DNA of 53,795 nt from a virus. A program made the translations under genes and the position numbers. The stretch lies in the UHGV virus genome UHGV-0191815; one strand, 5' to 3'. Under the pieces are notes generated by a model. It was not told the DNA's origin and searched no databases. It worked only from the letters and a program-made list of their open reading frames with translations. Position 1 is the stretch's first letter, and each line of letters opens with the position of its first letter. Positions 1,821-14,679 of this stretch are shown here, one piece after another.

Positions 1821-4604
1821 ATGATTTACACAACTGGAACAATTGCCATTAATGGCAACACTGTTAATGGCGCGGGGACAAACTTCTCCGAGCCGCTTTC
1901 TCTCATTCGTGTGGGCTGCACGCTTATTGCTATCAGCAACCCTATCCAGATCTTTACAGTTACAGAAATCAAGAGCAGCACAGAACTGTCAGTAACGCCA
2001 GCGGCTAACCCTGCAATTGCTGCCGGAACAAAATTTAGCATTCTGCTTTCCGACTCGATCTCAGTTGATGGGCTTGCTCAGGACGTAGCTGAAACGCTGC
2101 GTTACTACCAGGGCAAGGAATCAGAGATCGCAACGGCGGTCGAGTGGTGGAATGAGTTCGGCGGTGATGGTCAGATGGAGCAACTTCTTGCCGACATTCG
2201 CACAGAAACGGCGCAATCAACCGCCAACGCTCAAAAAACAGAATCAGACAAAAACGCAGCGGCATCATCAAAAACAGCAGCAGCAAACTCAGCAACCGCA
2301 GCAAAAGCGTCACAGGATGCAGCAAAAGCCAGTGAAACAGCATCCAGCAACAGCAAAAAAGCGGCGGCTACCAGTGAAACCAATGCGGCAAAATCAGCAG
2401 CCGATGCGCTTAACTATCGCAACCAGGCACAGGCCATCACCGGATCTAACATCGGTCTTTCCTCAAATCCTCGAGACTGCCCGGATATTTCAGGAAACCC
2501 ATCAGGTTATCTTGGCTTTCTGCGCATCATGGAAGGGGCTACCGGGTGGCCTTCTATTGCTTCAGGTGAGCGCTATTTGTCTGGCTTTATTTGCCCGACT
2601 TTAGGCAGTGTCCCGGCATTTTCTGGTCTTTTTATAGGGCATATTACCGGCAGTGCTTACACTTATAAGTGGAGCGAATCAACAGGACCGCAATGGGCTA
2701 GACACGCAAGAAAAGATGAATTAGATGAGAATAGCTCACCACAGTTCAGATCTGTAAGTTTAAAAAGAGTTAGTGACTCGACTACCGGATGGGTTGCAGG
2801 AGGTCTTTTATCTAGCGTTTTGGTTGGTACATCAGGATCAGAACGTGTTTACGGTGGACTATACCCTGAGACAAACCTTTCTTTGCCTGACCAATTAACA
2901 CTACATTTGAGATCTGGCGGCGTGAACAGATACGCAAGCCTTAACGTAAACGGTGAATTTATAGCTGACTCTTTCAAACCTAAAAACGCTGAACAGACAA
3001 GGAGAAACATCAACATCCCAACCATAGGCGGTGGCGAGATAATAACAATCGAAGCACCGGAAGGCGTTGAGGATGGGAAGTATTACCCTATAATTATAAA
3101 CGCCAGTTATTACAGCGCGTACATAACTGGCTATCAGATCGATATTGTTACAGCGTCTGGCGCAGGTAATTACCCAATGAACTGTAACACCTTTTCGGGG
3201 TATGTAAGGACTGGTGGGTGGAGCGACAGAAAAGACGGCGGTTATGGTTACTATAATCGTTATAGTGATAAAGAAATCGCTTTACAATCTATCTGCAGTT
3301 CCAGCAAAGACAAAGATAATTTGCTCTTTGTTTTTGTTGAAGCAAGGGCATTTCCTGTTAAAATGCGCTTGCCTGTAGGCGTAACAGCAGAAGCACCAGC
3401 GGCCCAGGTTGTGTATGATAGTGGTAAAGATACAGAAACGATAATCCCGTGGGGTGTATCAGATCCGCTTAGTTCATATAAAAACCTGCAGGTTATGTTT
3501 GACTTCAGGATGGGTCGGTGCGGCTTTTATTCTGCAACGACTGAAGGACTTTATTATATTTGTAGCGGTGGCAGGGTCGGCCTGTTTAACGGAATTACCG
3601 TTGGCGAAGAAATATCTATGACGATGCCAAAGCTAACTATAAATGGCATGATAGGATCATCTAATGGTTACGTTGCACAAACTGACGCTGATTGGAATGG
3701 TCAGCAGTCAGATGGCATAAGCAAGTTTAAACCTATTGCTGGCAATGTTAACACGCCTGAAAACAGCCTAACTTATGGTGGTTTTCATGTTGGATTTAGC
3801 AATAGCCACGCAACTCAATTCGCCGGGCGCAATTCAAAATTCTACGCAAGAAGTTTTGAGGCCGGAGTAGATAAAGGTTGGCGTAGGCTTGCGACGCTTA
3901 ACGATAATCTTGTGCAAAGGTGGACGGGATACCAGGAATTTAAATCAACTGATTTTTATTCCGATACATTCTCAAGAAAACTATCTTTTAAAGTAACAAC
4001 GTCGACAGTAAGAAACGGAGCATTCGAGCTTTGGGGTGATCCAAACAGACCTACCGTTCTTGAGTATAAAATAAGAAATCCAGAGACAGATACAGCACTA
4101 AAATATGCGTTTTACGCGCAACAGAATACTGATGATTCAATAGTATTCAACGTTAACGGCGCTGTGACATGTGTTACAGTGACCCAATCATCAGATCGCG
4201 ATCTGAAGGACAACATTCAGGTTATAGGTGACGCTACCGAAGCAATCCGTAAAATGAACGGGTACACCTACACGCTCAAGGAAAACGGCCTGCCTTACGC
4301 TGGTGTTATCGCTCAGGAGGTCATGGAAGCGCTGCCGGAAGCTGTTGGATCGTTTACTCATTACGGTGAAGCGTTACAAGGCCCAACAGTTGACGGCAAC
4401 GAGCTACGCGAAGAAACTCGTTACCTAAATGTTGATTATGCAGCGGTTACTGGTTTACTTGTCCAGGTGGCACGCGAAACAGATAACCGCGTCACAGAAC
4501 TGGAAGAAGAAAACGCCAGCCTGCGAGCCAACATTGCCGCAATGGATGAGCGCATCGCAAAACTTGAAGCGCTTGTCAGTAAGTTGACCGGAAGCGAAAA
4601 ATAA
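1821..4604 (+). CDS. Side tail fibre protein with C-terminal intramolecular chaperone (peptidase S74-like) domain
   Basis: 927 aa; N-terminus has Ala/Ser/Thr-rich fibre repeats (KAAATSETNAAKS); C-terminus has SDRDLKDNI...YTYTLKE...GVIAQEV...coiled coil, typical of self-cleaving fibre chaperone domains; RBS ggag upstream. Confidence 0.75.
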   Translation: MIYTTGTIAINGNTVNGAGTNFSEPLSLIRVGCTLIAISNPIQIFTVTEIKSSTELSVTPAANPAIAAGTKFSILLSDSISVDGLAQDVAETLRYYQGKESEIATAVEWWNEFGGDGQMEQLLADIRTETAQSTANAQKTESDKNAAASSKTAAANSATAAKASQDAAKASETASSNSKKAAATSETNAAKSAADALNYRNQAQAITGSNIGLSSNPRDCPDISGNPSGYLGFLRIMEGATGWPSIASGERYLSGFICPTLGSVPAFSGLFIGHITGSAYTYKWSESTGPQWARHARKDELDENSSPQFRSVSLKRVSDSTTGWVAGGLLSSVLVGTSGSERVYGGLYPETNLSLPDQLTLHLRSGGVNRYASLNVNGEFIADSFKPKNAEQTRRNINIPTIGGGEIITIEAPEGVEDGKYYPIIINASYYSAYITGYQIDIVTASGAGNYPMNCNTFSGYVRTGGWSDRKDGGYGYYNRYSDKEIALQSICSSSKDKDNLLFVFVEARAFPVKMRLPVGVTAEAPAAQVVYDSGKDTETIIPWGVSDPLSSYKNLQVMFDFRMGRCGFYSATTEGLYYICSGGRVGLFNGITVGEEISMTMPKLTINGMIGSSNGYVAQTDADWNGQQSDGISKFKPIAGNVNTPENSLTYGGFHVGFSNSHATQFAGRNSKFYARSFEAGVDKGWRRLATLNDNLVQRWTGYQEFKSTDFYSDTFSRKLSFKVTTSTVRNGAFELWGDPNRPTVLEYKIRNPETDTALKYAFYAQQNTDDSIVFNVNGAVTCVTVTQSSDRDLKDNIQVIGDATEAIRKMNGYTYTLKENGLPYAGVIAQEVMEALPEAVGSFTHYGEALQGPTVDGNELREETRYLNVDYAAVTGLLVQVARETDNRVTELEEENASLRANIAAMDERIAKLEALVSKLTGSEK

Positions 4605-4662: not shown

Positions 4663-4917
4663 GTGTACCAAATTGTGACCAAATTGATAAATCAAAAACA
4701 AAAACAAAACATAACACATTGAATACAAATGAATTTTTCATTAAGTTATCCATTCAAAAGATAAGTAGGTAACGCCATTTCTATCATTTCACATCGTGTC
4801 ACATCGTCACCGCTTCACATTGATTTTAAAAGAAATATTTATTCTATCGTGTCATATCGTTCCCTATCGTGTTACTATCCATGCGTAAAATGTGTGTACC
4901 AAATAGTGACCAAAATT
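4662..4917 (+). promoter_or_regulatory. Integrase upstream region with repeats; candidate attP / arm-type binding sites
   Basis: Two near-identical 23-bp direct repeats tgtgtaccaaatWgtgaccaaa (4662-4684 and 4893-4915) flank an AT-rich stretch carrying short 10-bp-phased repeats (acatcgtgtc / acatcgtcac at 4791-4810; tatcgt at 4845, 4855, 4865). Confidence 0.35.
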
Positions 4918-6117
4918 ATGCTTACAGATACCAAATTACGAAACATTCACGGCAAGCCATACGACGGCCCGGAAGAAGTACCGGACGCTGGCGGATTGTC
5001 TGCCAGGATAAGCCCGCGCGGAGTTATATCTTTCCAGTATCGCTACCGATTCAACGGCAAGCCTCGACGGATGAAGATTGGCACATACGGAGAAATAACA
5101 CTCAAAGAAGCGCGGGCGGCGGTGGCGGAGCATAAGGAAGTGCTAAACTCAGGCCGAGATCCATCGGTAGCAAAAAGAATGCACCTTTCCCGCGTTACGA
5201 CACGGGCAACGGTTGAGGATATTGTAAGGGAGTACATGGAATCGCCGCAGGCAAGGAACATGGTCAATTATAAGCAGGTTGAGGCCATGCTAGATAAGCA
5301 CGTCATAAAACCATACGGTAGCTATATAGTCGATGATATGGACGCTATGATGTGGGAGGGGGTTTTTAGAAAGGTAGCCAGCGGTGGCGCACCAGTTCAG
5401 GCAGGTATAGTTCTCAACAGAATGAAGGCCGTAATAAAATACGCCATTCGCCGCCGCCGCGTGGATCGTGACGATATATCATTGCTGTGCGTTAAAGACG
5501 TTGGCAAAAAACCAGCGCAAGGCAAGCGAGTTTTGTCAATACAGGAGATCCACCGCCTAATCGGCCTTATAGACAGTTCAAAAATGGCGCGGCTGAATCA
5601 GATATTGATGAAGCTGATTATATTTACCGGGTGCAGGACAAGCGAACTGACAAACGCAAGGCGCGAGCATTTCGATCTTGATAGCTGCGTGTGGACGGTT
5701 CCTGGTGCATTGAGTAAGAACAGGAATGAGTTTAAGCGCGGTTTATCGGGCGTTAGCGTGGCTTTATTGCGTGAGGCTATGGATCTGCATAGCTTTAATT
5801 TTGTCTTCGTTCCTGTGCTTTCTGGAAGGGATGAGGCGGTGGATAGAAGTGTACCAAAAACAGCAGCTAGGGATTTAATGATGAGGATGGGCGGCGAGCC
5901 GTGGTCATGTCACGATCTACGCCGCACCGTGAGGACAAACCTTTCAGCGCTTGGCGTTGCGCCTCACGTCGCGGAAAAGGTTTTGGGGCACAAGCTGGCG
6001 GGAATGTTGGCTATATACGATCAGTATGACTATGTGAGGGAACAAATAGAGGCGATGAATAAGCTGGCTGATTATTACATGAAGCCCATTGACTTACAAA
6101 ATGAAATAACATCCTGA
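4918..6117 (+). CDS. int: Tyrosine integrase, P4-like family
   Basis: N-terminus MLTDTKLRNIHGKPYDGPEEVPDAGGLSARISPRGVISFQYRYRFNGKPRRMKIGTYGEITLKEARAAV matches the P4-type integrase N-terminal domain; C-terminal catalytic region has HDLRRT and Y; the ORF-track start at 4849 is an upstream extension. Confidence 0.85.
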   Translation: MLTDTKLRNIHGKPYDGPEEVPDAGGLSARISPRGVISFQYRYRFNGKPRRMKIGTYGEITLKEARAAVAEHKEVLNSGRDPSVAKRMHLSRVTTRATVEDIVREYMESPQARNMVNYKQVEAMLDKHVIKPYGSYIVDDMDAMMWEGVFRKVASGGAPVQAGIVLNRMKAVIKYAIRRRRVDRDDISLLCVKDVGKKPAQGKRVLSIQEIHRLIGLIDSSKMARLNQILMKLIIFTGCRTSELTNARREHFDLDSCVWTVPGALSKNRNEFKRGLSGVSVALLREAMDLHSFNFVFVPVLSGRDEAVDRSVPKTAARDLMMRMGGEPWSCHDLRRTVRTNLSALGVAPHVAEKVLGHKLAGMLAIYDQYDYVREQIEAMNKLADYYMKPIDLQNEITS

Positions 6118-6947: not shown

Positions 6948-7123
6948 TACGCCACCGTTACATTGTCAACTTTGATAAAGTATTCAGGGTGATTTTCTAT
7001 TTCGTGCTTGAAGTGCGCGTGACACAATCGCCACTCCCGCGCCTGGTTGTGGAAGTAATAAACATATTCGCCATCAATCTTATACAAAATGCCCGTAGGT
7101 TTAGCCATGTAGTAACGAACCAT
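6948..7123 (-). CDS. Hypothetical small protein (58 aa)
   Basis: MVRYYMAKPTGILYKIDGEYVYYFHNQAREWRLCHAHFKHEIENHPEYFIKVDNVTVA; its ATG overlaps the ninB stop (TAATG), suggesting translational coupling; not in the ORF track because it is under 60 aa. Confidence 0.4.
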
Positions 7124-7554
7124 TATTGCCCCCAGCGTTTTATAAATTCCTCGTTTAACTTAGTATCGCCAGACCACTGAACACCGTGTTCAGCGCCGAA
7201 CGAGTAGATCAGTTCGATTAATTCGATAAATTCTGCTTTACTCATTCTGCTTGTTGACGTACCCAGTACAACAAACCCTGATTTATCCAGGTTAGGGACA
7301 ACGCCATATTTCTTAAGTCCGGCAGTAAATACCGCTTTCCAGTCTTCCGGTGACAGCTTTTTCCCGTACCAATTGACCTGCTCGCTAACGTCTGTCAGCA
7401 GCGCCCAAAGCAACGCGTTTTGACTCAGTGAGCGGGTCTTCTCCTGGATGGTAATGACCAGCGGGCTTTTGCTATCAGGCTGGATCTCTCTTATCTGCCT
7501 GATAGCATTTTCTTTCACGGCGTCGTTTACTATCTCAAATCTAATTTGCCTCAT
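7123..7554 (-). CDS. ninB: NinB-like recombination protein (lambda NinB/Orf family)
   Basis: Collinear similarity to lambda NinB: ...PLVITIQEKTRSLSQNALLWALLTDVSEQVNWYGKKLSPEDWKAVFTAGLKKYGVVPNL...GFVVLGTSTSRMSKAEF. Confidence 0.8.
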   Translation of the reverse strand: MRQIRFEIVNDAVKENAIRQIREIQPDSKSPLVITIQEKTRSLSQNALLWALLTDVSEQVNWYGKKLSPEDWKAVFTAGLKKYGVVPNLDKSGFVVLGTSTSRMSKAEFIELIELIYSFGAEHGVQWSGDTKLNEEFIKRWGQ

Positions 7555-7748
7555 GATACACCGTTACTATTTTCACGCGGTGCACGCGCATACATGATTG
7601 CCCATAAAGAAATAAGCCTTGAACTAGACATAAAATCGTTTTTAAGTTTTTTCATATCAATGACGACAGGGCGATCAGGATCATCGCCTCGCATGTATTC
7701 CGCAATAGTGCTCATGTCTTCAACAGTCAAATCAAGTTCTTTGTCCAT
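7551..7748 (-). CDS. Hypothetical protein (65 aa, start MDKELDL)
   Basis: Internal ATG preceded by RBS aaggtgggg; the ORF-track 5' extension (7551..7832) overlaps the upstream gene. Confidence 0.45.
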   Translation of the reverse strand: MDKELDLTVEDMSTIAEYMRGDDPDRPVVIDMKKLKNDFMSSSRLISLWAIMYARAPRENSNGVS

Positions 7749-7758
7749 AATCCCCACC

Positions 7759-7965
7759 TTACACAATACGCATTGTTTTTCGTAATTCACCGCGCAACGC
7801 CTGCAACGCGTAATGAATAGGCACAAAAGCACGGTTAAATTTTACGTGCCTGTATTTGCGCATTAGTGGCGGCGTATAAACCATCGCGCCGCAAGGATCG
7901 CATGGGAATTTAAAGTGAGATTCGTCAATAAACGTTTCTACTGAATAAAAAATTACCCGTCTCAT
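7759..7965 (-). CDS. Hypothetical protein (68 aa)
   Basis: Tightly packed ORF in the operon; start overlaps the stop of the upstream gene. Confidence 0.4.
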   Translation of the reverse strand: MRRVIFYSVETFIDESHFKFPCDPCGAMVYTPPLMRKYRHVKFNRAFVPIHYALQALRGELRKTMRIV

Positions 7966-8519
7966 AATTCCAACCCCGTTTCGCCGTTAAGTTTTTCGAT
8001 CTCAAATACTGGTTTATCAGGTAGCAGGCCGTTATTTTTCCGGTATTCGTTCAGACGGCTGTCAAAGTCAAACGCCAAATCATTAGCGTGACCGAATCGC
8101 CCAGGTTTAAACAATGAGTAAAAGTTAACCCCGTGTCGGTTAGGGTCAACGCAAAGCGTTTCATCAATAACCATTAAACGCAGAGTCCGAGATAGATAAT
8201 TCCACGGAATACCCGTTTCCGCGCTAATGTCGCGCATACGCTTTTTAACGCTGTAGTCACCAAATAACGCAGCGACGCGCTCGCGACGTTCAGCATATAA
8301 CTGTTTAATACGATAACCAAGCAGTCTGCGGCGGCGTCCAAAACATGTATACACGCGCTCGACGATGCCGTTTTTTATTAAGTGTTTAATTGTCTCAGGC
8401 ATGATTCCATCCTTATCATACCCGACCAATAATCCTGTTTTCTGTCGTAACTGGTGCATTGTTGCGATGCCATCAAGTTCAAGGATATTGATAATTTTTG
8501 TTTCAATTTCAGCGCTCAT
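7962..8519 (-). CDS. Hypothetical protein (185 aa), possible winged-helix protein
   Basis: ORF with RBS gagg; immediately downstream of the helicase gene. Confidence 0.5.
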   Translation of the reverse strand: MSAEIETKIINILELDGIATMHQLRQKTGLLVGYDKDGIMPETIKHLIKNGIVERVYTCFGRRRRLLGYRIKQLYAERRERVAALFGDYSVKKRMRDISAETGIPWNYLSRTLRLMVIDETLCVDPNRHGVNFYSLFKPGRFGHANDLAFDFDSRLNEYRKNNGLLPDKPVFEIEKLNGETGLEL

Positions 8520-8595
8520 TTTTAGCCTCGTTTAAAACGCGATAACAGCCACCAGAAAGCGGTAAACTTTCCGGCAAGCTGTTTGCTAATATTGA

Positions 8596-10011
8596 TTAAA
8601 AGGATGCGTTATTCTGATTGTTTCGTTGGTTAAAACGGCTTGTGCGATGATTCATTGACTGAATGCACGCTGCGGCTGCGCGCGCCTGGTCGCATGGCAA
8701 GATATTACCGTTGTCATCAAACCGCTGGTAAACAGTTCCAGACTTACCATGACGGTTTTTTGACACAATGATTTCCATATATTCGCGAGCAACAGACTGT
8801 TCGTCGTAATATCCATCGCGGTAAACCATGATGATCCTGTCGGCATCTTGCTCAAGGTTGCCAGAATCACGAAGATCAGAATTATTAGGGCGCTTGTTCG
8901 GTCGCTCCTCAACGCGGCGGGACAATTGCGCCAGCGCCAACACTGGTACACGCAATTCTTTAGCCATCATCTTTAACGACCACGACAATTGCCCTACGGC
9001 GAGATCATGACGTTCGGCCTTAGCCAGCTTCATTAACCCGATATAGTCAATCATTACCATACCCAGGTTCGGGTGATCCTGCTTCATGCGTTCCGTTGTT
9101 GCGCGTATTTCCTCAACCGTTAACTGCGACGCGTCAACGATCCACACATCAAGGTTAGCAAGTGCGCTCATACCCTGGCCGACATGCGCCCAACCTTCAT
9201 CATCAAGTTTTACCGGATTGCGCAGGCAGTCAGTTGATAAATTACCAGCGCCAGCGATAGCCCGCTCAGTCATCTGATCGAGTGACATTTCAAGCGTGAA
9301 CAGCAAAACGCCAACCCGCTGATCTTTACTGCCAGGGTAAGGGCGTTCAGCGGCTGCGCGGGCAATTGTCAGCGCCAACGCAGATTTACCAGACCCAGGG
9401 CGTCCGGCGAGAAGCACCAAATCAGTAGCGTTAATGCCGCCCAACATTTCGTCGAGTGGTTCTATACCTGTTTTGATGTTGTCAGAATTGACACCGCATT
9501 CCATGCGCTTACTTAAAACATCCGTATATTCCTGTACCGCATCGCGCAACAGAACAGGAATGATCTTGTCTTTCGTTACCTTTAATTTTGAATACCGGGA
9601 ATCAAAATCTTTCATCGTCTCTTTGACGACCTCAAGCGTCCCCGTCTCCAGTTTGTAGCGCATATCGTCGATTAGTTCCAACATCTGCCGCCGCTGGTGC
9701 TCTTCACGTAGTAACTGTGCGTATCCCTTCAGGTTGGCAGCAGACGGGCACGATCGCGCCGTTTGCATCAGCGGTACAAAGTTTTCATTGCCAATCTCAT
9801 CACCTACCAGCAATGCATCTATGAGATTTCTGTTTCTGGCTTGCGCCCGGATAACTTCAAACGCACGTTTATAGAGCGGGATCGTGAACACTTCAGGATC
9901 AAGCGTGGCGAGAACATCTTGCGCGTTAGGAGTAAGACCGCCCAACAGCAGCCCGCCGATAACTGACGCCTCACGTTCCTGCCGTAGCGAGTTTATTTGC
10001 TCAGTTACCAT
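8596..10011 (-). CDS. Replicative DNA helicase, DnaB-like
   Basis: Walker A GRPGSGKSALAL; DnaB-type N-terminal domain (SVIGGLLLG...) and RecA-like C-terminal domain (...VLALAQLSR...). Confidence 0.85.
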   Translation of the reverse strand: MVTEQINSLRQEREASVIGGLLLGGLTPNAQDVLATLDPEVFTIPLYKRAFEVIRAQARNRNLIDALLVGDEIGNENFVPLMQTARSCPSAANLKGYAQLLREEHQRRQMLELIDDMRYKLETGTLEVVKETMKDFDSRYSKLKVTKDKIIPVLLRDAVQEYTDVLSKRMECGVNSDNIKTGIEPLDEMLGGINATDLVLLAGRPGSGKSALALTIARAAAERPYPGSKDQRVGVLLFTLEMSLDQMTERAIAGAGNLSTDCLRNPVKLDDEGWAHVGQGMSALANLDVWIVDASQLTVEEIRATTERMKQDHPNLGMVMIDYIGLMKLAKAERHDLAVGQLSWSLKMMAKELRVPVLALAQLSRRVEERPNKRPNNSDLRDSGNLEQDADRIIMVYRDGYYDEQSVAREYMEIIVSKNRHGKSGTVYQRFDDNGNILPCDQARAAAACIQSMNHRTSRFNQRNNQNNASF

Positions 10012-10029
10012 TATGTTATTGCCTCCGGT

Positions 10030-11148
10030 TTACAAAATGGAAAATTCAGGGTAATAAACAAATCGCCCGATTTCACCATGATCCGGGCTGTAAATTATTA
10101 CCGCCGCCAGGCGACGCGACCTCCAGCCTCCATTAGTCGAATACGCATCCTTGCCAGCTAACGTGCCGTGGTGCTCAACAATTCCTAGTGACGTTTCAAT
10201 GACTGTTTGATGGTGCAGATGCCCAGTGTGAGCGTAAACAGCAACCGACTTCCCGAAATCTTCGCGCCAGTCAGCTACGCAAGCAGACAATAAATTTTCC
10301 GGTTTTTTGATAGTGTGCCCGTGGTGGTAAGCAAGGAATGTTTTCCCGTACTGCGTGTGGTGTACGATAGTAGGTGACACATCAACCGTCACGCGCGGTT
10401 CATCTTCGTAAAAAGCAGCCAGCGCCGCACGCAGCCAAATCATACCAGACTGGTCATGATTCCCTGATAACACCTGGATTTCCACATCCTTATGATTTAG
10501 CAACATCTTTCCGACCGCCCGCCGGACAGACCGGATCGCCACATAAACAAGTTTTGCGTAGCGCGAATCGCAATCAAGAACGTGATTGCTTGATGGCGTC
10601 ACTGGTAACAATCCGTCAGTGTGAAGCAGGTCGCCACCGAGAAGTAAGACCGCTTTTTCACTCATAGGAGCAGCGCCAACAGCATAATCAAAGAAGTCAT
10701 TTAACACGCGTTCAGCGATCCCAGTGTCGTAGCTCTCGCCACATTCAGCTTTGTGAGCAAGTGCCCCGATGTGCAGGTCAAACACCGGATAAAGTGCCAG
10801 GCTTTTTTGAAAATCAATTTCAGGCACTGACACAGCCTCCGCGCGTGGTATTTCATTCGTGAAAGCGTCGCGGGCGGCTTGCATTAGCCGTTCCATTTCG
10901 TCGCTGTCACGGGCCGTTTTAATCCAGCGCATGACCGTATTGCCAGCATTATCGACAAGAACAGATTCACCAGTAACGCTAAAACCAGGAGCGCGGCGCG
11001 TGGATATTAAACCGCGTTTTGCTAGTTTTGCGCCCAGGCGTTCGACATTGCGTTTAGACATGCCATATTTTTCAGCGATCTGTTTATACGTTAAACCGTT
11101 TTGGTATTCAGCGATTAACTGCTCATCGCTGATTTTTCTTTGCGACAT
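10030..11148 (-). CDS. HTH domain fused to calcineurin-like metallophosphoesterase
   Basis: N-terminal HTH (LTYKQIAEKYGMSKRNVERL); phosphoesterase motifs DLHIG, GDLLHTDG, GNHD, HTGHLHH; start chosen at MSQRK with RBS ggagg. Confidence 0.65.
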   Translation of the reverse strand: MSQRKISDEQLIAEYQNGLTYKQIAEKYGMSKRNVERLGAKLAKRGLISTRRAPGFSVTGESVLVDNAGNTVMRWIKTARDSDEMERLMQAARDAFTNEIPRAEAVSVPEIDFQKSLALYPVFDLHIGALAHKAECGESYDTGIAERVLNDFFDYAVGAAPMSEKAVLLLGGDLLHTDGLLPVTPSSNHVLDCDSRYAKLVYVAIRSVRRAVGKMLLNHKDVEIQVLSGNHDQSGMIWLRAALAAFYEDEPRVTVDVSPTIVHHTQYGKTFLAYHHGHTIKKPENLLSACVADWREDFGKSVAVYAHTGHLHHQTVIETSLGIVEHHGTLAGKDAYSTNGGWRSRRLAAVIIYSPDHGEIGRFVYYPEFSIL

Positions 11149-11181
11149 AATGTTAATTCCTCCAGTTAACAAAATGTATAC

Positions 11182-11924
11182 CTATTTGCACGCAAAAAGT
11201 TCAGACACCCAAAGTTGACCCTTAGCAGTAAATAGTGATTGTACATAACCAGCATCCGAACATTTTACCACTCCATAGCCTTTGTCTACGAACCACTGCT
11301 TGAACATACGCCCTCCGCGCTTAATTCGAGTATCGTACACGTCAACCTGTTCGAGTTTTTTGTTGAGTTGCGTAGCAGTCATACCCAAAGGCCTGGCAAC
11401 CTGTGTTGCGTTGCGATACTGTTTGTTTCTCACAATCGCATCACAGACAGCCGCTTTTGGCGCTAATTCCTTGTTTTCCAGCGCCAGCCGTTCAGCTTCT
11501 TTCTGTGCTAATAGTTTTTGTTCCACCTCATCAGCCCATGCGCGAGCCGCAGCAACCGGGTCAGTGAAATCCGGCAAAGCTGGTTTAAAACCGTAATGTC
11601 CATTTTCACGCAAAGCAGGGAGAACATCCTCGCACACCCAATCCTGGAAGCGCTCAGCCGATTCTATTTTTGATCGCATCACAAGGCGGTAAACATCTGA
11701 TTCATGGATTAGCGTTACGCCTTGCGGGATTGGAGCGAATCCCAAATGTTCCATTTCAGAACATTTTATTTTTATCAATGACTTACAGTGATCTTTGATA
11801 GCTTTTGTGGCGTAGCGTAACCAAGCGCCCGCGCCACATCCATTGCAACAAAAGCAGGTTTACCATCATAAATTACAGCAGTGATTTTATTGTCATCAAA
11901 ATTAAAGCACATCAACTCAGACAT
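11182..11924 (-). pseudogene. Antirepressor (Bro-N + KilAC/ANT domains) interrupted by a frameshift near 11775-11780
   Basis: Bro-N N-terminal half (MSELMCFNFDDNKITAVIYDGKPAFVAMDVARALGY) is in ORF 11775..11984; the rest (...FQDWVCEDVLPALRENGHY plus the KilAC region ATQVARPLGMTATQLNKKL) is in ORF 11182..11778 in another frame; junction lies in an A-rich run. Confidence 0.5.
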
Positions 11925-12056
11925 TGTAATTTCTCCGTAAAACGCGCTACAACGCAAAAATCCCACCGCGTAACCCGATTGCACAGGTTGCAGTGTTTTA
12001 TTGCGTCAGATGCGCTTTTAGGTGGCTAATTTTTGATTTACAGACTGATATGAAGG

Positions 12057-12158
12057 TTATGGATTGACGAGAAGGAACAAACCGCCGAACAAAGCGACGT
12101 TAACAGCGATTGCAGCAGCGATGGCAAAAGCCAGGGCGAAAACGTGTTTACCGTCCAT
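12057..12158 (-). CDS. Putative 33-aa transmembrane peptide
   Basis: MDGKHVFALAFAIAAAIAVNVALFGGLFLLVNP; short hydrophobic ORF in an otherwise non-coding gap. Confidence 0.3.
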   Translation of the reverse strand: MDGKHVFALAFAIAAAIAVNVALFGGLFLLVNP

Positions 12159-12186
12159 TTTCAAAATCCTCTCTAAAACGCTCTCT

Positions 12187-12242
12187 AGCGAGCTAAATAG
12201 CTAAAGGTATGCAAGTGTAGCACCACATGCGATTTAGCTCGC
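12187..12242. repeat. 12-bp perfect inverted repeat (agcgagctaaat ... atttagctcgct) separated by 32 bp
   Basis: Read directly from the sequence; lies between the antirepressor and the replication initiator gene. Confidence 0.5.
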
Positions 12243-12292
12243 TGGTGAGCTTGTTTTGCGGGTAATTTTTGATTTTTGCGGATCGTGGTTGG

Positions 12293-13345
12293 TCAAAGAG
12301 CGCCTGCGCGTGTATCACGTAGCGTTTTTGGTTTAAGCAGGAAATCAAGTGTCGCAGTGAAGCCATCGCCGAAGTAAAAATCTGAAGCATTGTTTTTGAA
12401 CGTTTCAAAGTAGGCGACAAAGCCGTTAATGCTTTTGTCTTTCAGGTAGTCGGTGAACGCGTAGATCTTGCGTTCAAGATCCCGATCCAGTTCGGCAGGT
12501 GGCAACAGGCCATCAAACGTGCTGTTAAATGCCTCCACTACGTCGGCAGCGTTTGCAGTGGCTGACAGGTTGCGCCATTTTTCAGCATCAGCCAGATACC
12601 CATCAAATTTAGTTACCCGGCAAATGTTAACAGGCTTAGGAGTTCCGCCACGACTACGCCATTGCGTTAAAGCCCACTCAATCACTAATGTGATCTCATC
12701 CTCTGTGTATGCTTTACGTGTTTTTGTTTCTGTCAGTAGTTCTGTAAATGGCTTGGCATCACGACATTTGCATCCTGCCTTGTCGTTGTAGAAGGCCAGG
12801 CAACGCAACGCCGCTTCGTTTATGCCATCATGACTGACTGTTTTTTGTTCACTTTCGACAATACACGTAGTGTATATATCTTTTTCTCTTTCTTCTTCTT
12901 CTTCTAATTCTAATTCATGACCCTTTCCTGACCCGGTCATGACCCTATCATGACCTTTTTGTGTTGGATTGATTAACTTTTCTAATTTTAATTGTTCCTT
13001 CGCTGTGTTTATTGCTGCCCTATATGCGCTTTTAGAAGTCATTGATTGGTCCAGCCTTTTTAATAACTTTAAACAAGTTATGTGGCCCTGAGAACATTCA
13101 AACAAACCAATTTCGATGAAGTATTTCATCATTTCTTCTATACGTTTTTCAGTCGATCCGACGTTTCGCGCAATGATTCTCGCGTCATGTCGTAGGTCAA
13201 AAGTCAGATTATGCTGATCTACGTCATAAGTTATTAGTTCGAGGCAATACCAATAAAGCCCGTACCCTTCCAGGCCATAATCTAACAAAACGTTTTGAAG
13301 TTTTTCATCGCGGTTAGCATCGCTATCGTGCTTAAACCACTTCAT
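12293..13345 (-). CDS. Replication initiation protein (replisome organiser, DUF4373-like N-terminus)
   Basis: N-terminus MKWFKHDSDANRDEKLQNVLLDYGLEGYGLYWYCLELI is typical of phage replication initiators; RBS ggagg; iterons lie inside the gene. Confidence 0.7.
   Translation of the reverse strand: MKWFKHDSDANRDEKLQNVLLDYGLEGYGLYWYCLELITYDVDQHNLTFDLRHDARIIARNVGSTEKRIEEMMKYFIEIGLFECSQGHITCLKLLKRLDQSMTSKSAYRAAINTAKEQLKLEKLINPTQKGHDRVMTGSGKGHELELEEEEEREKDIYTTCIVESEQKTVSHDGINEAALRCLAFYNDKAGCKCRDAKPFTELLTETKTRKAYTEDEITLVIEWALTQWRSRGGTPKPVNICRVTKFDGYLADAEKWRNLSATANAADVVEAFNSTFDGLLPPAELDRDLERKIYAFTDYLKDKSINGFVAYFETFKNNASDFYFGDGFTATLDFLLKPKTLRDTRAGAL
12915..12955. repeat. Candidate origin of replication: four iterons (tcatgaccc / tcctgaccc) with exact 11-bp phasing, next to a polypyrimidine/AT tract
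   Basis: Iteron starts at 12915, 12926, 12937 and 12948; flanking tract tttttctctttcttcttcttcttctaattctaatt (12875-12912); sits in the linker region of the initiator gene, as in lambda O. Confidence 0.55.
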
Positions 13346-13348
13346 AGA

Positions 13349-13603
13349 TCATTCCTCCGGCAATGCAATATCATAAATTTCGCCGTATTCGTCAGCGCGT
13401 TTAATGAATCCTTTGCGGATTAATGAGTTTAATGCGTCAACAGTAGTATGCAGTGGCAGTTCGCAGACTTTTGCGATCTCTTCGCGTGAAGCATGTGCGC
13501 GGCCCTTGTTGTCTGCCTTTTCTGCAAACGCCATTAAGACAATTTTTTGAATCGGGCTGTTAAGTTTTACGTTCCATGCTTTGCTAATCATGTTCATACT
13601 CAT
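13349..13603 (-). CDS. Small HTH DNA-binding protein, first gene of the minus-strand early operon (Cro/CII-like position)
   Basis: MSMNMISKAWNVKLNSPIQKIVLMAFAEKADNKGRAHASREEIAKVCELPLHTTVDALNSLIRKGFI; RBS aggag 9 nt upstream of this ATG; divergent from the repressor gene. Confidence 0.55.
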   Translation of the reverse strand: MSMNMISKAWNVKLNSPIQKIVLMAFAEKADNKGRAHASREEIAKVCELPLHTTVDALNSLIRKGFIKRADEYGEIYDIALPEE

Positions 13604-13909
13604 TGTGTTTTCTCCTATGGTTAAAATGAACGCGCTGGCGGGCATCCCATTATCATTAGATAGCAGTGATTGACCGCTGAACAGATCCCGCCGTTGCGTG
13701 ATATTTGTTTTTCGCATTGCAGCGACACCTGGTTTTTAAAGAGCTTTCAAGGTATGTGCCATTTGTGCTTTCCATTATCTTTTTTCTTGCATCCTTGCAA
13801 CTATGGCCTTACCTTGTCAGCAAGTTTACAGAATGTTGTTAATAGATCAAGGATTGAAAAATACATTTTGTGACTTGCATCAAAAATTTTTAGGTTATAG
13901 GGTAGCGAT
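13604..13909. promoter_or_regulatory. Divergent immunity-region control region (candidate operators and promoters for the repressor gene and the minus-strand early operon)
   Basis: About 300 bp non-coding between divergent HTH genes; contains atacattttgtgact (13861-13875), the palindromes ttgca-tcct-tgcaa and cttg-tcag-caag, and the nut-like element. Confidence 0.5.
13713..13750 (-). promoter_or_regulatory. nut-like element on the minus-strand transcript (boxA-like GCTCTTTAAAAA + hairpin CGCTGCAATGCG)
   Basis: Reverse complement reads agCTCTTTAAAAAccaggtgtCGCTGCAATGCG; near-identical to the plus-strand element at 22441-22474. Confidence 0.45.
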
Positions 13910-14557
13910 ATGAAAACAAAATGGTATGACTTGGCAAAACAACTCATGCGGGCGCAAGGCATGAGCCAGGATTCATTGGCTGATCTTATGGGGATAACCA
14001 AAGGTGGCCTTTCTCACTGGTTGAACGGTCGCCGTGAGCCGAATCTTGAAGATATTACGCGGATCATGCGGGCGCTTGGGCGTCGGCAATTCACTGTTAC
14101 TCATGATGGTATGGTCATTGATGATTCTGTTTCTAACACGTTGCCGGGAGCGCCACCGCGTGATTTAGGTAGTTACCCGGTTGTTGACTGGAAGGACGCA
14201 GCAAACAATATGGAAGACATACGCCGATCAACATTACCACACGTTACGACTAGCGTTATTTGTTCAGATGATAGTTACTGGCTGGTTGCTAAAGGTGAAT
14301 CAATGAACGCGCCGCAAGGGTTAAGCATCCCGGCGGGTACTATGATACTTGTTGACCCGCACGCGCCAGCTATTGATGGCAAACTGGTTATAGCCCAACT
14401 GGAGGAAGGGCAGACACCGACGTTTAAACAGTTGATTACTGATGGAGGCAGAAAACTTTTGCGTTCACTTAATCCGTTGTATCCTCCGATCCCTATGAAT
14501 CCAGAATCAAAAATCATTGGCGTGGTTGTTGATGCGAAGATCGTAAACCTGCCATAA
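13910..14557 (+). CDS. CI-like prophage repressor (HTH_XRE N-terminal domain + LexA-like S24 peptidase C-terminal domain)
   Basis: HTH (SQDSLADLMGITKGGLSHWLNGRR); C-terminal S24-type region (...LVAKGESMNAPQGLSIPAGTMILVD...KLVIAQLEEGQTPTFKQL) with Ser and Lys catalytic context. Confidence 0.85.
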   Translation: MKTKWYDLAKQLMRAQGMSQDSLADLMGITKGGLSHWLNGRREPNLEDITRIMRALGRRQFTVTHDGMVIDDSVSNTLPGAPPRDLGSYPVVDWKDAANNMEDIRRSTLPHVTTSVICSDDSYWLVAKGESMNAPQGLSIPAGTMILVDPHAPAIDGKLVIAQLEEGQTPTFKQLITDGGRKLLRSLNPLYPPIPMNPESKIIGVVVDAKIVNLP

Positions 14558-14562
14558 ACATT

Positions 14563-14587
14563 AGCCGCCCGGTGGCGGCTTTTCTTT
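14563..14587 (+). terminator. Terminator after the repressor gene
   Basis: Stem agccgcc / ggcggct followed by tttcttt. Confidence 0.5.
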
Positions 14588-14679
14588 GCCATAAAAACGC
14601 CAAAACGTAAACAGAAAACCGTGTTTATTGTTTAAATATCAATGGCTTATAAATTTTATAAAAAAGTATACAAAATGTG

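Follow-up and report, generated by a model that had tools for sequence, protein, structure and literature searches.

Metallophosphoesterases (MPEs) linked to DNA have been described both in bacteria and in phages. The MPE of Pseudomonas putida, a protein of 216 aa, is a Mn-dependent endonuclease of single-stranded DNA from the Exo-Lig-Lhr-MPE cluster (PMC7826289), with His81 and His113 as its DNA-specific histidines, and mycobacteriophages of Cluster A encode MPEs of about 255 aa among their replication genes (Bxb1 gp47, L5 gp54, A10ZJ24 gp48), gp48 of A10ZJ24 being an early nuclease which degrades host DNA (PMC12287305). None of these proteins carries a helix-turn-helix (HTH) domain. The gene considered here, at 10030..11148 on the minus strand of the virus genome UHGV-0191815 (53,795 nucleotides, the whole of which is referred to as the window), also lies among replication genes, but its product of 372 aa combines an N-terminal HTH with a calcineurin-like MPE (HTH-MPE). 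The reading favoured in this work, to which a probability of about 0.55 is assigned, is that the protein is an HTH-tethered di-metal phosphodiesterase/nuclease of phage DNA metabolism, acting on DNA. Domain architecture, intact motifs, fold class, family size and the variability of the gene context are the parts of this reading which the data support directly.

The N-terminal domain, residues 1-55 (10984..11148, minus strand), is predicted to be a three-helix HTH of the sigma-70 region 4 / LuxR-GerE-like kind, with helices at residues 8-16, 21-27 and 32-44 of an AlphaFold2 model whose mean predicted local distance difference test score (pLDDT) is 82.3. In the window protein itself the Pfam HTH matches (residues 10-55) stay below the gathering score (HTH_23, 20.3 bits against 24.6), and in relatives the N-termini are matched by the hidden Markov models (HMMs) of Sigma70_r4_2 (1.5e-9), GerE (2.4e-8) and further HTH families. 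As modelled, the domain is a tri-helical HTH, with DNA binding as its putative function. It is followed in the model by a linker module, residues 56-100 (10849..10983, minus strand), made of a beta-hairpin (58-78) and a long helix (79-97); in this region G60, W75 and P101 are conserved across the family. The calcineurin-like core occupies residues 113-372 (10033..10812, minus strand) and its fold matches those of SbcD, Mre11, MJ0936, DP1 and LpxH. In the model the MPE sandwich spans residues 114-364 as a four-layer alpha/beta/beta/alpha fold, and the final core strand ends at residue 364 of 372, so that no capping domain is seen C-terminal to the core.

All five elements of the di-metal ligand motif set (DxH / GD / GNH[D/E] / H / GHxH) are present. 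They are essentially invariant in all three sets of sequences compared: 43 close homologues, 8 from phages whose identity falls as low as 22%, and 71 representatives reaching about 20%. Motif I, D124-L-H126 (10771..10779, this and the following on the minus strand), is invariant in the 71 members. Motif II, G172-D173-L-L-H176 (10621..10635), has the GDxxH form found in Mre11, D173 being invariant and G172 and H176 conserved in at least 90%; in motif III, G229-N230-H231-D232 (10453..10464), N230 and H231 are invariant and G229 and D232 reach at least 90%. In motif IV, H275-H276-G277-H278 (10315..10326), the invariant residue is H276, and in motif V, G309-H310-L-H312 (10213..10224), it is H312, with G309 and H310 at 90% or above. 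A further conserved element is an Arg-rich, probably flexible loop (K333, D334, G340-R346), which would fit nucleic-acid binding.

Domain databases recover this assignment through relatives of the protein. No phosphoesterase domain was returned by Pfam for the window protein even at E<=10, and in Pfam and NCBIfam scans neither the whole protein nor its C-terminal 274 aa was matched to an MPE or a phosphatase. For the catalytic domain, PDB sequences yielded no significant match, whether queried with the single sequence or with a profile, and a fold search of BFVD returned only uncharacterised viral MPEs. Among the 71 relatives, 16 match PF00149 (Metallophos; best 5.6e-5) and 11 match PF12850 (Metallophos_2). 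Since motifs, transitive homology through relatives and predicted structure agree, the protein is identified, on sequence and model, as an HTH fused to a calcineurin-like MPE with intact catalytic motifs. The first-pass annotation of the window had described it in just these terms, with a full motif set, and the description is borne out by the motifs, the Pfam matches of the relatives and the AlphaFold2 model.

Regarding the kind of phosphoesterase, the same annotation had proposed a nuclease or phosphatase acting in replication or recombination, and had advised a comparison with Mre11/SbcD and Ser/Thr phosphatases. When this comparison was carried out, the highest structural scores were obtained against SbcD (12.7), MJ0936 (12.5), the Pol delta B subunit (12.2), three Mre11 entries (12.2, 12.1 and 12.0), PolD DP1 (11.9), LpxH (11.7) and YfcE (11.4), so that the fold stands closer to SbcD/Mre11 (12.0-12.7) than to the PPP phosphatases such as PP5 (about 8); the nuclease MPE of P. 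putida scored 8.2 (20% identity), below SbcD and Mre11. The best Foldseek matches were Mre11-DNA complexes, with TM-scores of just ~0.4; compared with the Mre11/SbcD nucleases (for instance S. aureus SbcD 7dog and M. jannaschii Mre11 4tug), the HTH is unique to the phage family. These scores favour SbcD/Mre11, DP1 and YfcE over PPP and agree with the lack of PPP signatures, and the modelled enzyme is therefore placed on the nuclease/phosphodiesterase side of the superfamily (SbcD/Mre11, PolD-DP1, YfcE), not on the NinI/PPP side. A protein phosphatase of the lambda NinI/PPP type, specific for Ser/Thr (or Tyr) and directed at phosphoproteins of the host or the phage, would share with HTH-MPE the superfamily and, in the case of NinI, the lambdoid-type position in an early operon, and a relative in Salmonella phage Ent3 is in fact labelled 'putative serine/threonine protein phosphatase'. 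Nevertheless, neither the PPP signature (GDxHG / GDxVDRG / GNHE) nor a PPP HMM match was found in the HTH-MPE sequence, and clear homology to NinI-type phosphatases, which the annotation had named as the finding that would overturn its proposal, did not appear. This option is effectively excluded, and of the earlier proposal it is the nuclease/phosphoesterase half that stands, as the best reading.

The gene belongs to a large family. The window protein matches PHROG 704 over its full length (E 2.5e-139; residues 4-368 on profile positions 2-387 of 390), a family whose name, 'DNA repair exonuclease', is a computational annotation, and which includes mEp044_10, mEp021_11, CDS0044 of the T1-like phage tunus, Salmonella phage SE2 gp52 and Pantoea phage AAS23 gp38. 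These members share the HTH-linker-MPE architecture and the invariant residues, and the window gene differs from them in its neighbourhood alone (initiator, MPE, DnaB). Since tblastn finds homologues in 2,036 phage records, this is judged a real, strongly conserved gene and no chance open reading frame (ORF). Identity amounts to 90-95% in the mEpimmI phages (94.9% in mEp044), 55-66% in the T1-like Drexlerviridae, 40-45% in Jersey-like and related siphoviruses and 22-40% in members from Vibrio, Rhodobacter and Sulfitobacter phages and cyanophages. A profile search of 1.84 billion representatives gave 5,584 clusters at 50% identity, 1,445 of them at E<=1e-30, and because nearly all of these clusters are 370-420 aa long, the HTH-MPE fusion is taken as the family-wide architecture. 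The gene was present throughout the T1-like, Jersey-like and mEpimmI loci examined, as well as in Autographiviridae and Campylobacter phages. Public labels vary from phosphoesterase, metallophosphoesterase and DNA repair exonuclease to sigma-70 r4 protein, transcriptional regulator and Ser/Thr phosphatase. The window gene is thus an ordinary member of a large and already annotated family.

An hhalign comparison of HTH-MPE with Bxb1 gp47 gave a probability of 16% and E 0.0016, in an alignment confined to motifs III-V, and by this measure this family and the mycobacteriophage MPEs are related at the superfamily level only. The precedent of A10ZJ24 gp48 is the experimental basis for a host-takeover or anti-defence role, in which the MPE, made early, would degrade the host chromosome, silence defence genes and supply nucleotides. 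The gene is placed in an early operon in the window, the family is widespread in virulent phages (T1-like, Jersey-like, Autographiviridae), and the AAS23 homologue, gp38, was detected by liquid chromatography-tandem mass spectrometry in purified virions (PMC8004638), which would permit action immediately upon infection; should that detection be genuine, the enzyme could enter the cell along with the injected DNA. Against this stand the distant kinship just described, the lack of an HTH in the mycobacteriophage proteins and the temperate nature of the window phage, for which wholesale destruction of host DNA is less expected, and we regard this role as unlikely. Bxb1 gp47 has a second function, in which it sets the direction of a serine integrase. 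A similar moonlighting as recombination directionality factor (RDF) was considered for HTH-MPE and rejected, because the integrase of the window is a tyrosine recombinase. It was also observed that in the RefSeq record of Bxb1 (our locus L174, 5876-6788) the 'RDF' label stands on gp46, and gp47, the published RDF, is labelled metallo-phosphoesterase, which looks like a slip of annotation transfer.

In order to describe the genomic context across the family, 171 HTH-MPE loci were collected and grouped into 47 lineages at 80% MPE identity, their neighbours being clustered de novo. The commonest neighbours are as follows: an HNH_3 homing endonuclease directly flanks the MPE in 8, an endolysin is nearby in 7 and a VRR-NUC nuclease in 6, a PNKP-type HAD 3'-phosphatase (Pfam HAD_PNKP, 4.5e-20) occupies position +1 in 5, and a P-loop protein resembling a deoxynucleoside monophosphate (dNMP) kinase occupies position +2, also in 5. 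The neighbourhood of the MPE thus includes nucleic-acid enzymes (PNKP phosphatase, kinase, ligase, nucleases and, just upstream of the MPE in locus L045, a superfamily 2 helicase), which favours the reading as an enzyme of DNA metabolism. This context suggests, by analogy, a set of nucleic-acid end-processing and repair enzymes recalling the bacterial Exo-Lig-Lhr-MPE cluster.

The string formed by the MPE, a HAD 3'-phosphatase of ~150-190 aa without kinase domain and the P-loop 'dNMP kinase' recurs in unrelated phage families (4734-7026 in locus L092, 4737-7994 in L093 and 8001-10200 in L087 and L088), and resembles a polynucleotide kinase/phosphatase repair module divided over separate genes. 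Bacterial Pnkp contains a calcineurin-type phosphoesterase domain which serves in end healing. It may accordingly be asked whether HTH-MPE is an end-healing phosphoesterase, a 2',3'-cyclic phosphodiesterase or 3'-end-cleaning enzyme working with the PNKP-type phosphatase, the kinase and a ligase to mend nicked DNA or cleaved tRNA, perhaps in order to counteract nucleases of the host. The strict order MPE, HAD_PNKP, P-loop kinase, kept in unrelated phage groups, speaks for it, and is found in Yersinia phage 526-1 and in Klebsiella and Pantoea T1-like phages as MPE, polynucleotide kinase (PNK), kinase (PMC8994998, PMC8004638). In Pectobacterium phage PP99 (Autographiviridae) the order is exonuclease, endonuclease VII, MPE, PNK, dNMP kinase and, directly following, DNA ligase, and in Campylobacter phage PC14 a ligase precedes and adjoins the MPE. 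However, the association reaches only ~11% of lineages, the PNKP and kinase genes are absent from the window and from all mEpimmI and Escherichia T1-like loci, and an HTH suits DNA better than tRNA, so that end healing as the function of the family is rather unlikely in our estimation. Host-DNA degradation and end healing are in any case closely related alternatives to the favoured reading.

Lysis genes form another recurrent neighbourhood. The MPE adjoins a holin/endolysin cassette in several unrelated lineages, from T1-like, Rhodobacter, Sulfitobacter and Vibrio phages (loci L002, L006, L007 and L004), a DNA methyltransferase is often near the MPE in such loci, and some 40 T1-like loci show a Dam methylase and, further on, the MPE, a holin and an endolysin. 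A placement beside or immediately upstream of lysis cassettes, together with a sigma-70 region 4 / LuxR-like HTH and the presence of Rv0805, YfcE and an Ap4A (diadenosine tetraphosphate) hydrolase among the fold matches, could be expected of a small-molecule or cyclic-nucleotide phosphodiesterase (Rv0805/CpdA-like), or of a transcription regulator in which the MPE is the sensor and the HTH governs late or lysis genes. This is nevertheless quite improbable: an enzyme degrading a signal needs no DNA-binding domain, the endolysin association stops at the 7 lineages mentioned, and the window shows no lysis link, its lysis genes being located elsewhere, as they are in relatives such as MagusPhagus. 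As for the HNH_3/AP2 endonucleases flanking the MPE, mEpimmI phages that are otherwise collinear differ in whether a homing-endonuclease gene of ~540 nt stands between MPE and DnaB (it does so at 5286-5789 in L005, which is mEp021, and also in the metagenomic relatives L032, L042 and L046), and these observations suggest that homing endonucleases preferentially target the MPE gene.

The position of the gene in the window had led the first-pass annotation to expect a helicase loader, of the lambda P or DnaC kind, and to consider HTH-MPE as a possible non-canonical one. That it lies directly upstream of a DnaB-like helicase was confirmed: a spacer of 18 nt separates its stop codon (10030-10032) from the ATG of the helicase at 10011, and the helicase (8596..10011, minus strand) matches Pfam DnaB_C (2.5e-75), the DnaB N-terminal domain (5.4e-12) and PHROG 19. 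A loader or adaptor replacing lambda P/DnaC would attach to the origin or to the initiator and bring in the DnaB-like helicase, and the arrangement is constant within the group, the MPE standing between the O-like initiator and the helicase in 42/42 mEpimmI loci, usually ~20 nt upstream of DnaB, with just three tiny ORFs between MPE and initiator in MagusPhagus. Nevertheless, a DnaB-type helicase adjoins the MPE in only one of the 47 lineages, the mEpimmI group itself, and since this sole lineage consists of closely related phages (MPEs at least 89% identical), the synteny may be mere common descent. In addition, no DnaB-like match lies within the 8-kb flanks of some 40 T1-like loci, where the other strand encodes a different helicase, and mEp021 and its three metagenomic relatives tolerate the HNH gene between the MPE and helicase genes. 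In three other lineages a DnaB-like gene does occur on the same strand, 3-4.5 kb upstream of the MPE, an order opposite to that expected for a loader and one which supports a place in DNA metabolism. The strictly conserved catalytic residues, for their part, argue for an enzyme and not for a scaffold.

The expectation of a loader at this position does not hold either. The nearest relatives of the window helicase beyond its own group are of the P22 gp12 type (57.6% identity to P22 gp12), and in the P22-like phage ST104 gene 12 begins before the initiator gene 18 has ended, which leaves no space for another gene. The P22 18/12 pair is not known to rely on a dedicated loader for replication. Pfam, PHROGs, NCBIfam and fold searches revealed no similarity to loaders of the lambda P, DnaC/IstB AAA+ or DnaD-like kinds, and the likeness to these known loaders lies in gene position within one lineage, with no conserved co-occurrence with DnaB. 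A loader function is, on these grounds, very improbable. As the slot between initiator and MPE is variable, the adjacency rare and P22-type relatives of the helicase have no intervening gene, HTH-MPE has the appearance of a conserved accessory gene that entered a P22-type replication module, and not of a replacement of lambda P. Another option would be that the mEpimmI HTH-MPE, once built into this module, acts at the origin or the helicase, either nicking or processing origin DNA for entry of the gp12-like helicase or bridging initiator and helicase. We see little likelihood in it, but if it were true it would represent a nuclease-based, non-AAA+ route to helicase loading.

The mechanism proposed under the favoured reading, a DNA-tethered phosphodiesterase/nuclease, is as follows. 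By its HTH the enzyme would be kept on DNA, and its pair of metal ions, probably Mn2+, would hydrolyse phosphodiester bonds in substrates which may be DNA ends, single-stranded regions or damaged termini; that DNA is the substrate, that the chemistry is that of a nuclease and what the biological role may be are the parts that we infer. The enzyme would serve as an accessory nuclease or end-processing enzyme in replication, recombination or repair, possibly contributing to the breakdown of host DNA as well. In this phage of the mEpimmI type the gene is part of the early rightward operon, where it stands between the initiator, of P22 type, and the gp12-like helicase, a position which reflects a block of DNA-metabolism genes and not helicase loading.

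Several observations weigh against this reading. The context of the gene varies widely and often includes lysis genes, and the PNKP link is limited to 5/47 lineages and missing from the window. Against PDB sequences, the family profile reached the SbcD/Mre11 of T. maritima only at a non-significant E of 0.44-1.2, there is no capping domain, and no Rad50/SbcC-like partner was found among the 25 commonest neighbour clusters of the 47 lineages, the flanks in the window being an Ant-like gene and DnaB. For these three reasons the possibility of an Mre11/SbcD orthologue was rejected. Moreover, the literature found on the family consists of genome notes, with no biochemical or genetic data for any member, and the T1-like relatives carry a RecE-like exonuclease together with an Erf recombinase (PMC8004638). 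In favour of the reading, the window encodes Erf, SSB, NinB, NinG and RusA among its nucleic-acid proteins, and no exonuclease of the lambda-Exo/RecE type is present among its annotated ORFs; the idea that the MPE is the missing resection exonuclease for Erf was downgraded, because the T1-like relatives possess Erf and the RecE-like exonuclease besides the MPE.

The gene and its surroundings may now be delimited. The ORF list places the start at a TTG at 11172 (10030..11172), but translation probably begins at the ATG at 11148, since a GGAGG (11159..11163, minus strand) lies 10 nt upstream of it and homologues begin at the same Met. The helicase has a GGAGG of its own at 10022-10026. Upstream, a replication initiator pair (12293..13717, minus strand) is recognized by Pfam and PHROG matches; it seems to be made of two neighbouring ORFs, a small HTH_36/DnaD_N-like protein of 122 aa (13349-13717) and a Lin1244_N/O-like protein of 350 aa (12293-13345), of which the small one, with identities of 40-93% among relatives, varies far more than the other. 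Between initiator and HTH-MPE lies a Bro-N/KilAC antirepressor-like gene in two ORFs (11775-11984 and 11182-11778, minus strand), which overlap by 4 nt and match different parts of the Bro-N profile. Related loci such as L019 have an intact protein of 266 aa, and the split may reflect a programmed shift, an error of sequencing or a frameshift that has left a pseudogene. The same slot, occupied by these Ant fragments in the window, holds a zinc-ribbon protein in mEp021, DNA-binding proteins in mEp044 and, as noted above, tiny ORFs in MagusPhagus. A divergent cI-like S24 repressor gene is located at 13910-14557.

From its sequence, the window is assigned to the mEpimmI group of temperate coliphages, since positions 7000-14600 share 87-95% DNA identity with mEp515, mEp554, mEp044, MagusPhagus, mEp010, mEp021 and mEp013. 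The group is described in PMC11893012, a paper in which the HTH-MPE gene is not discussed. The window begins within the tail-fibre region, with a tail-tip fibre at 95-1363 and a fibre of 927 aa with an S74 chaperone domain at 1821-4604, followed by the tyrosine integrase at 4849-6117; apparently, it is a complete genome of the mEpimmI type, permuted with respect to GenBank records which start at the integrase. The two ORFs of 422 aa at the left end were considered as a duplication, which was rejected, the two being the unrelated tail-tip fibre and integrase.

The family (~5,600 clusters at 50% identity) is known computationally, no experimental study of it has been found, and it is a reasonable target for biochemistry. 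Two unrelated phage MPEs, Bxb1 gp47 and A10ZJ24 gp48, are already known to be essential for replication or for the evasion of host defence. A DNA-tethered MPE nuclease could be a general tool of phages, of use in end processing, in the repair of nicks inflicted by the host or in the destruction of host DNA, and if its function were established, thousands of phage genomes would be better annotated, among them many of therapeutic T1-like phages of Klebsiella and E. coli.

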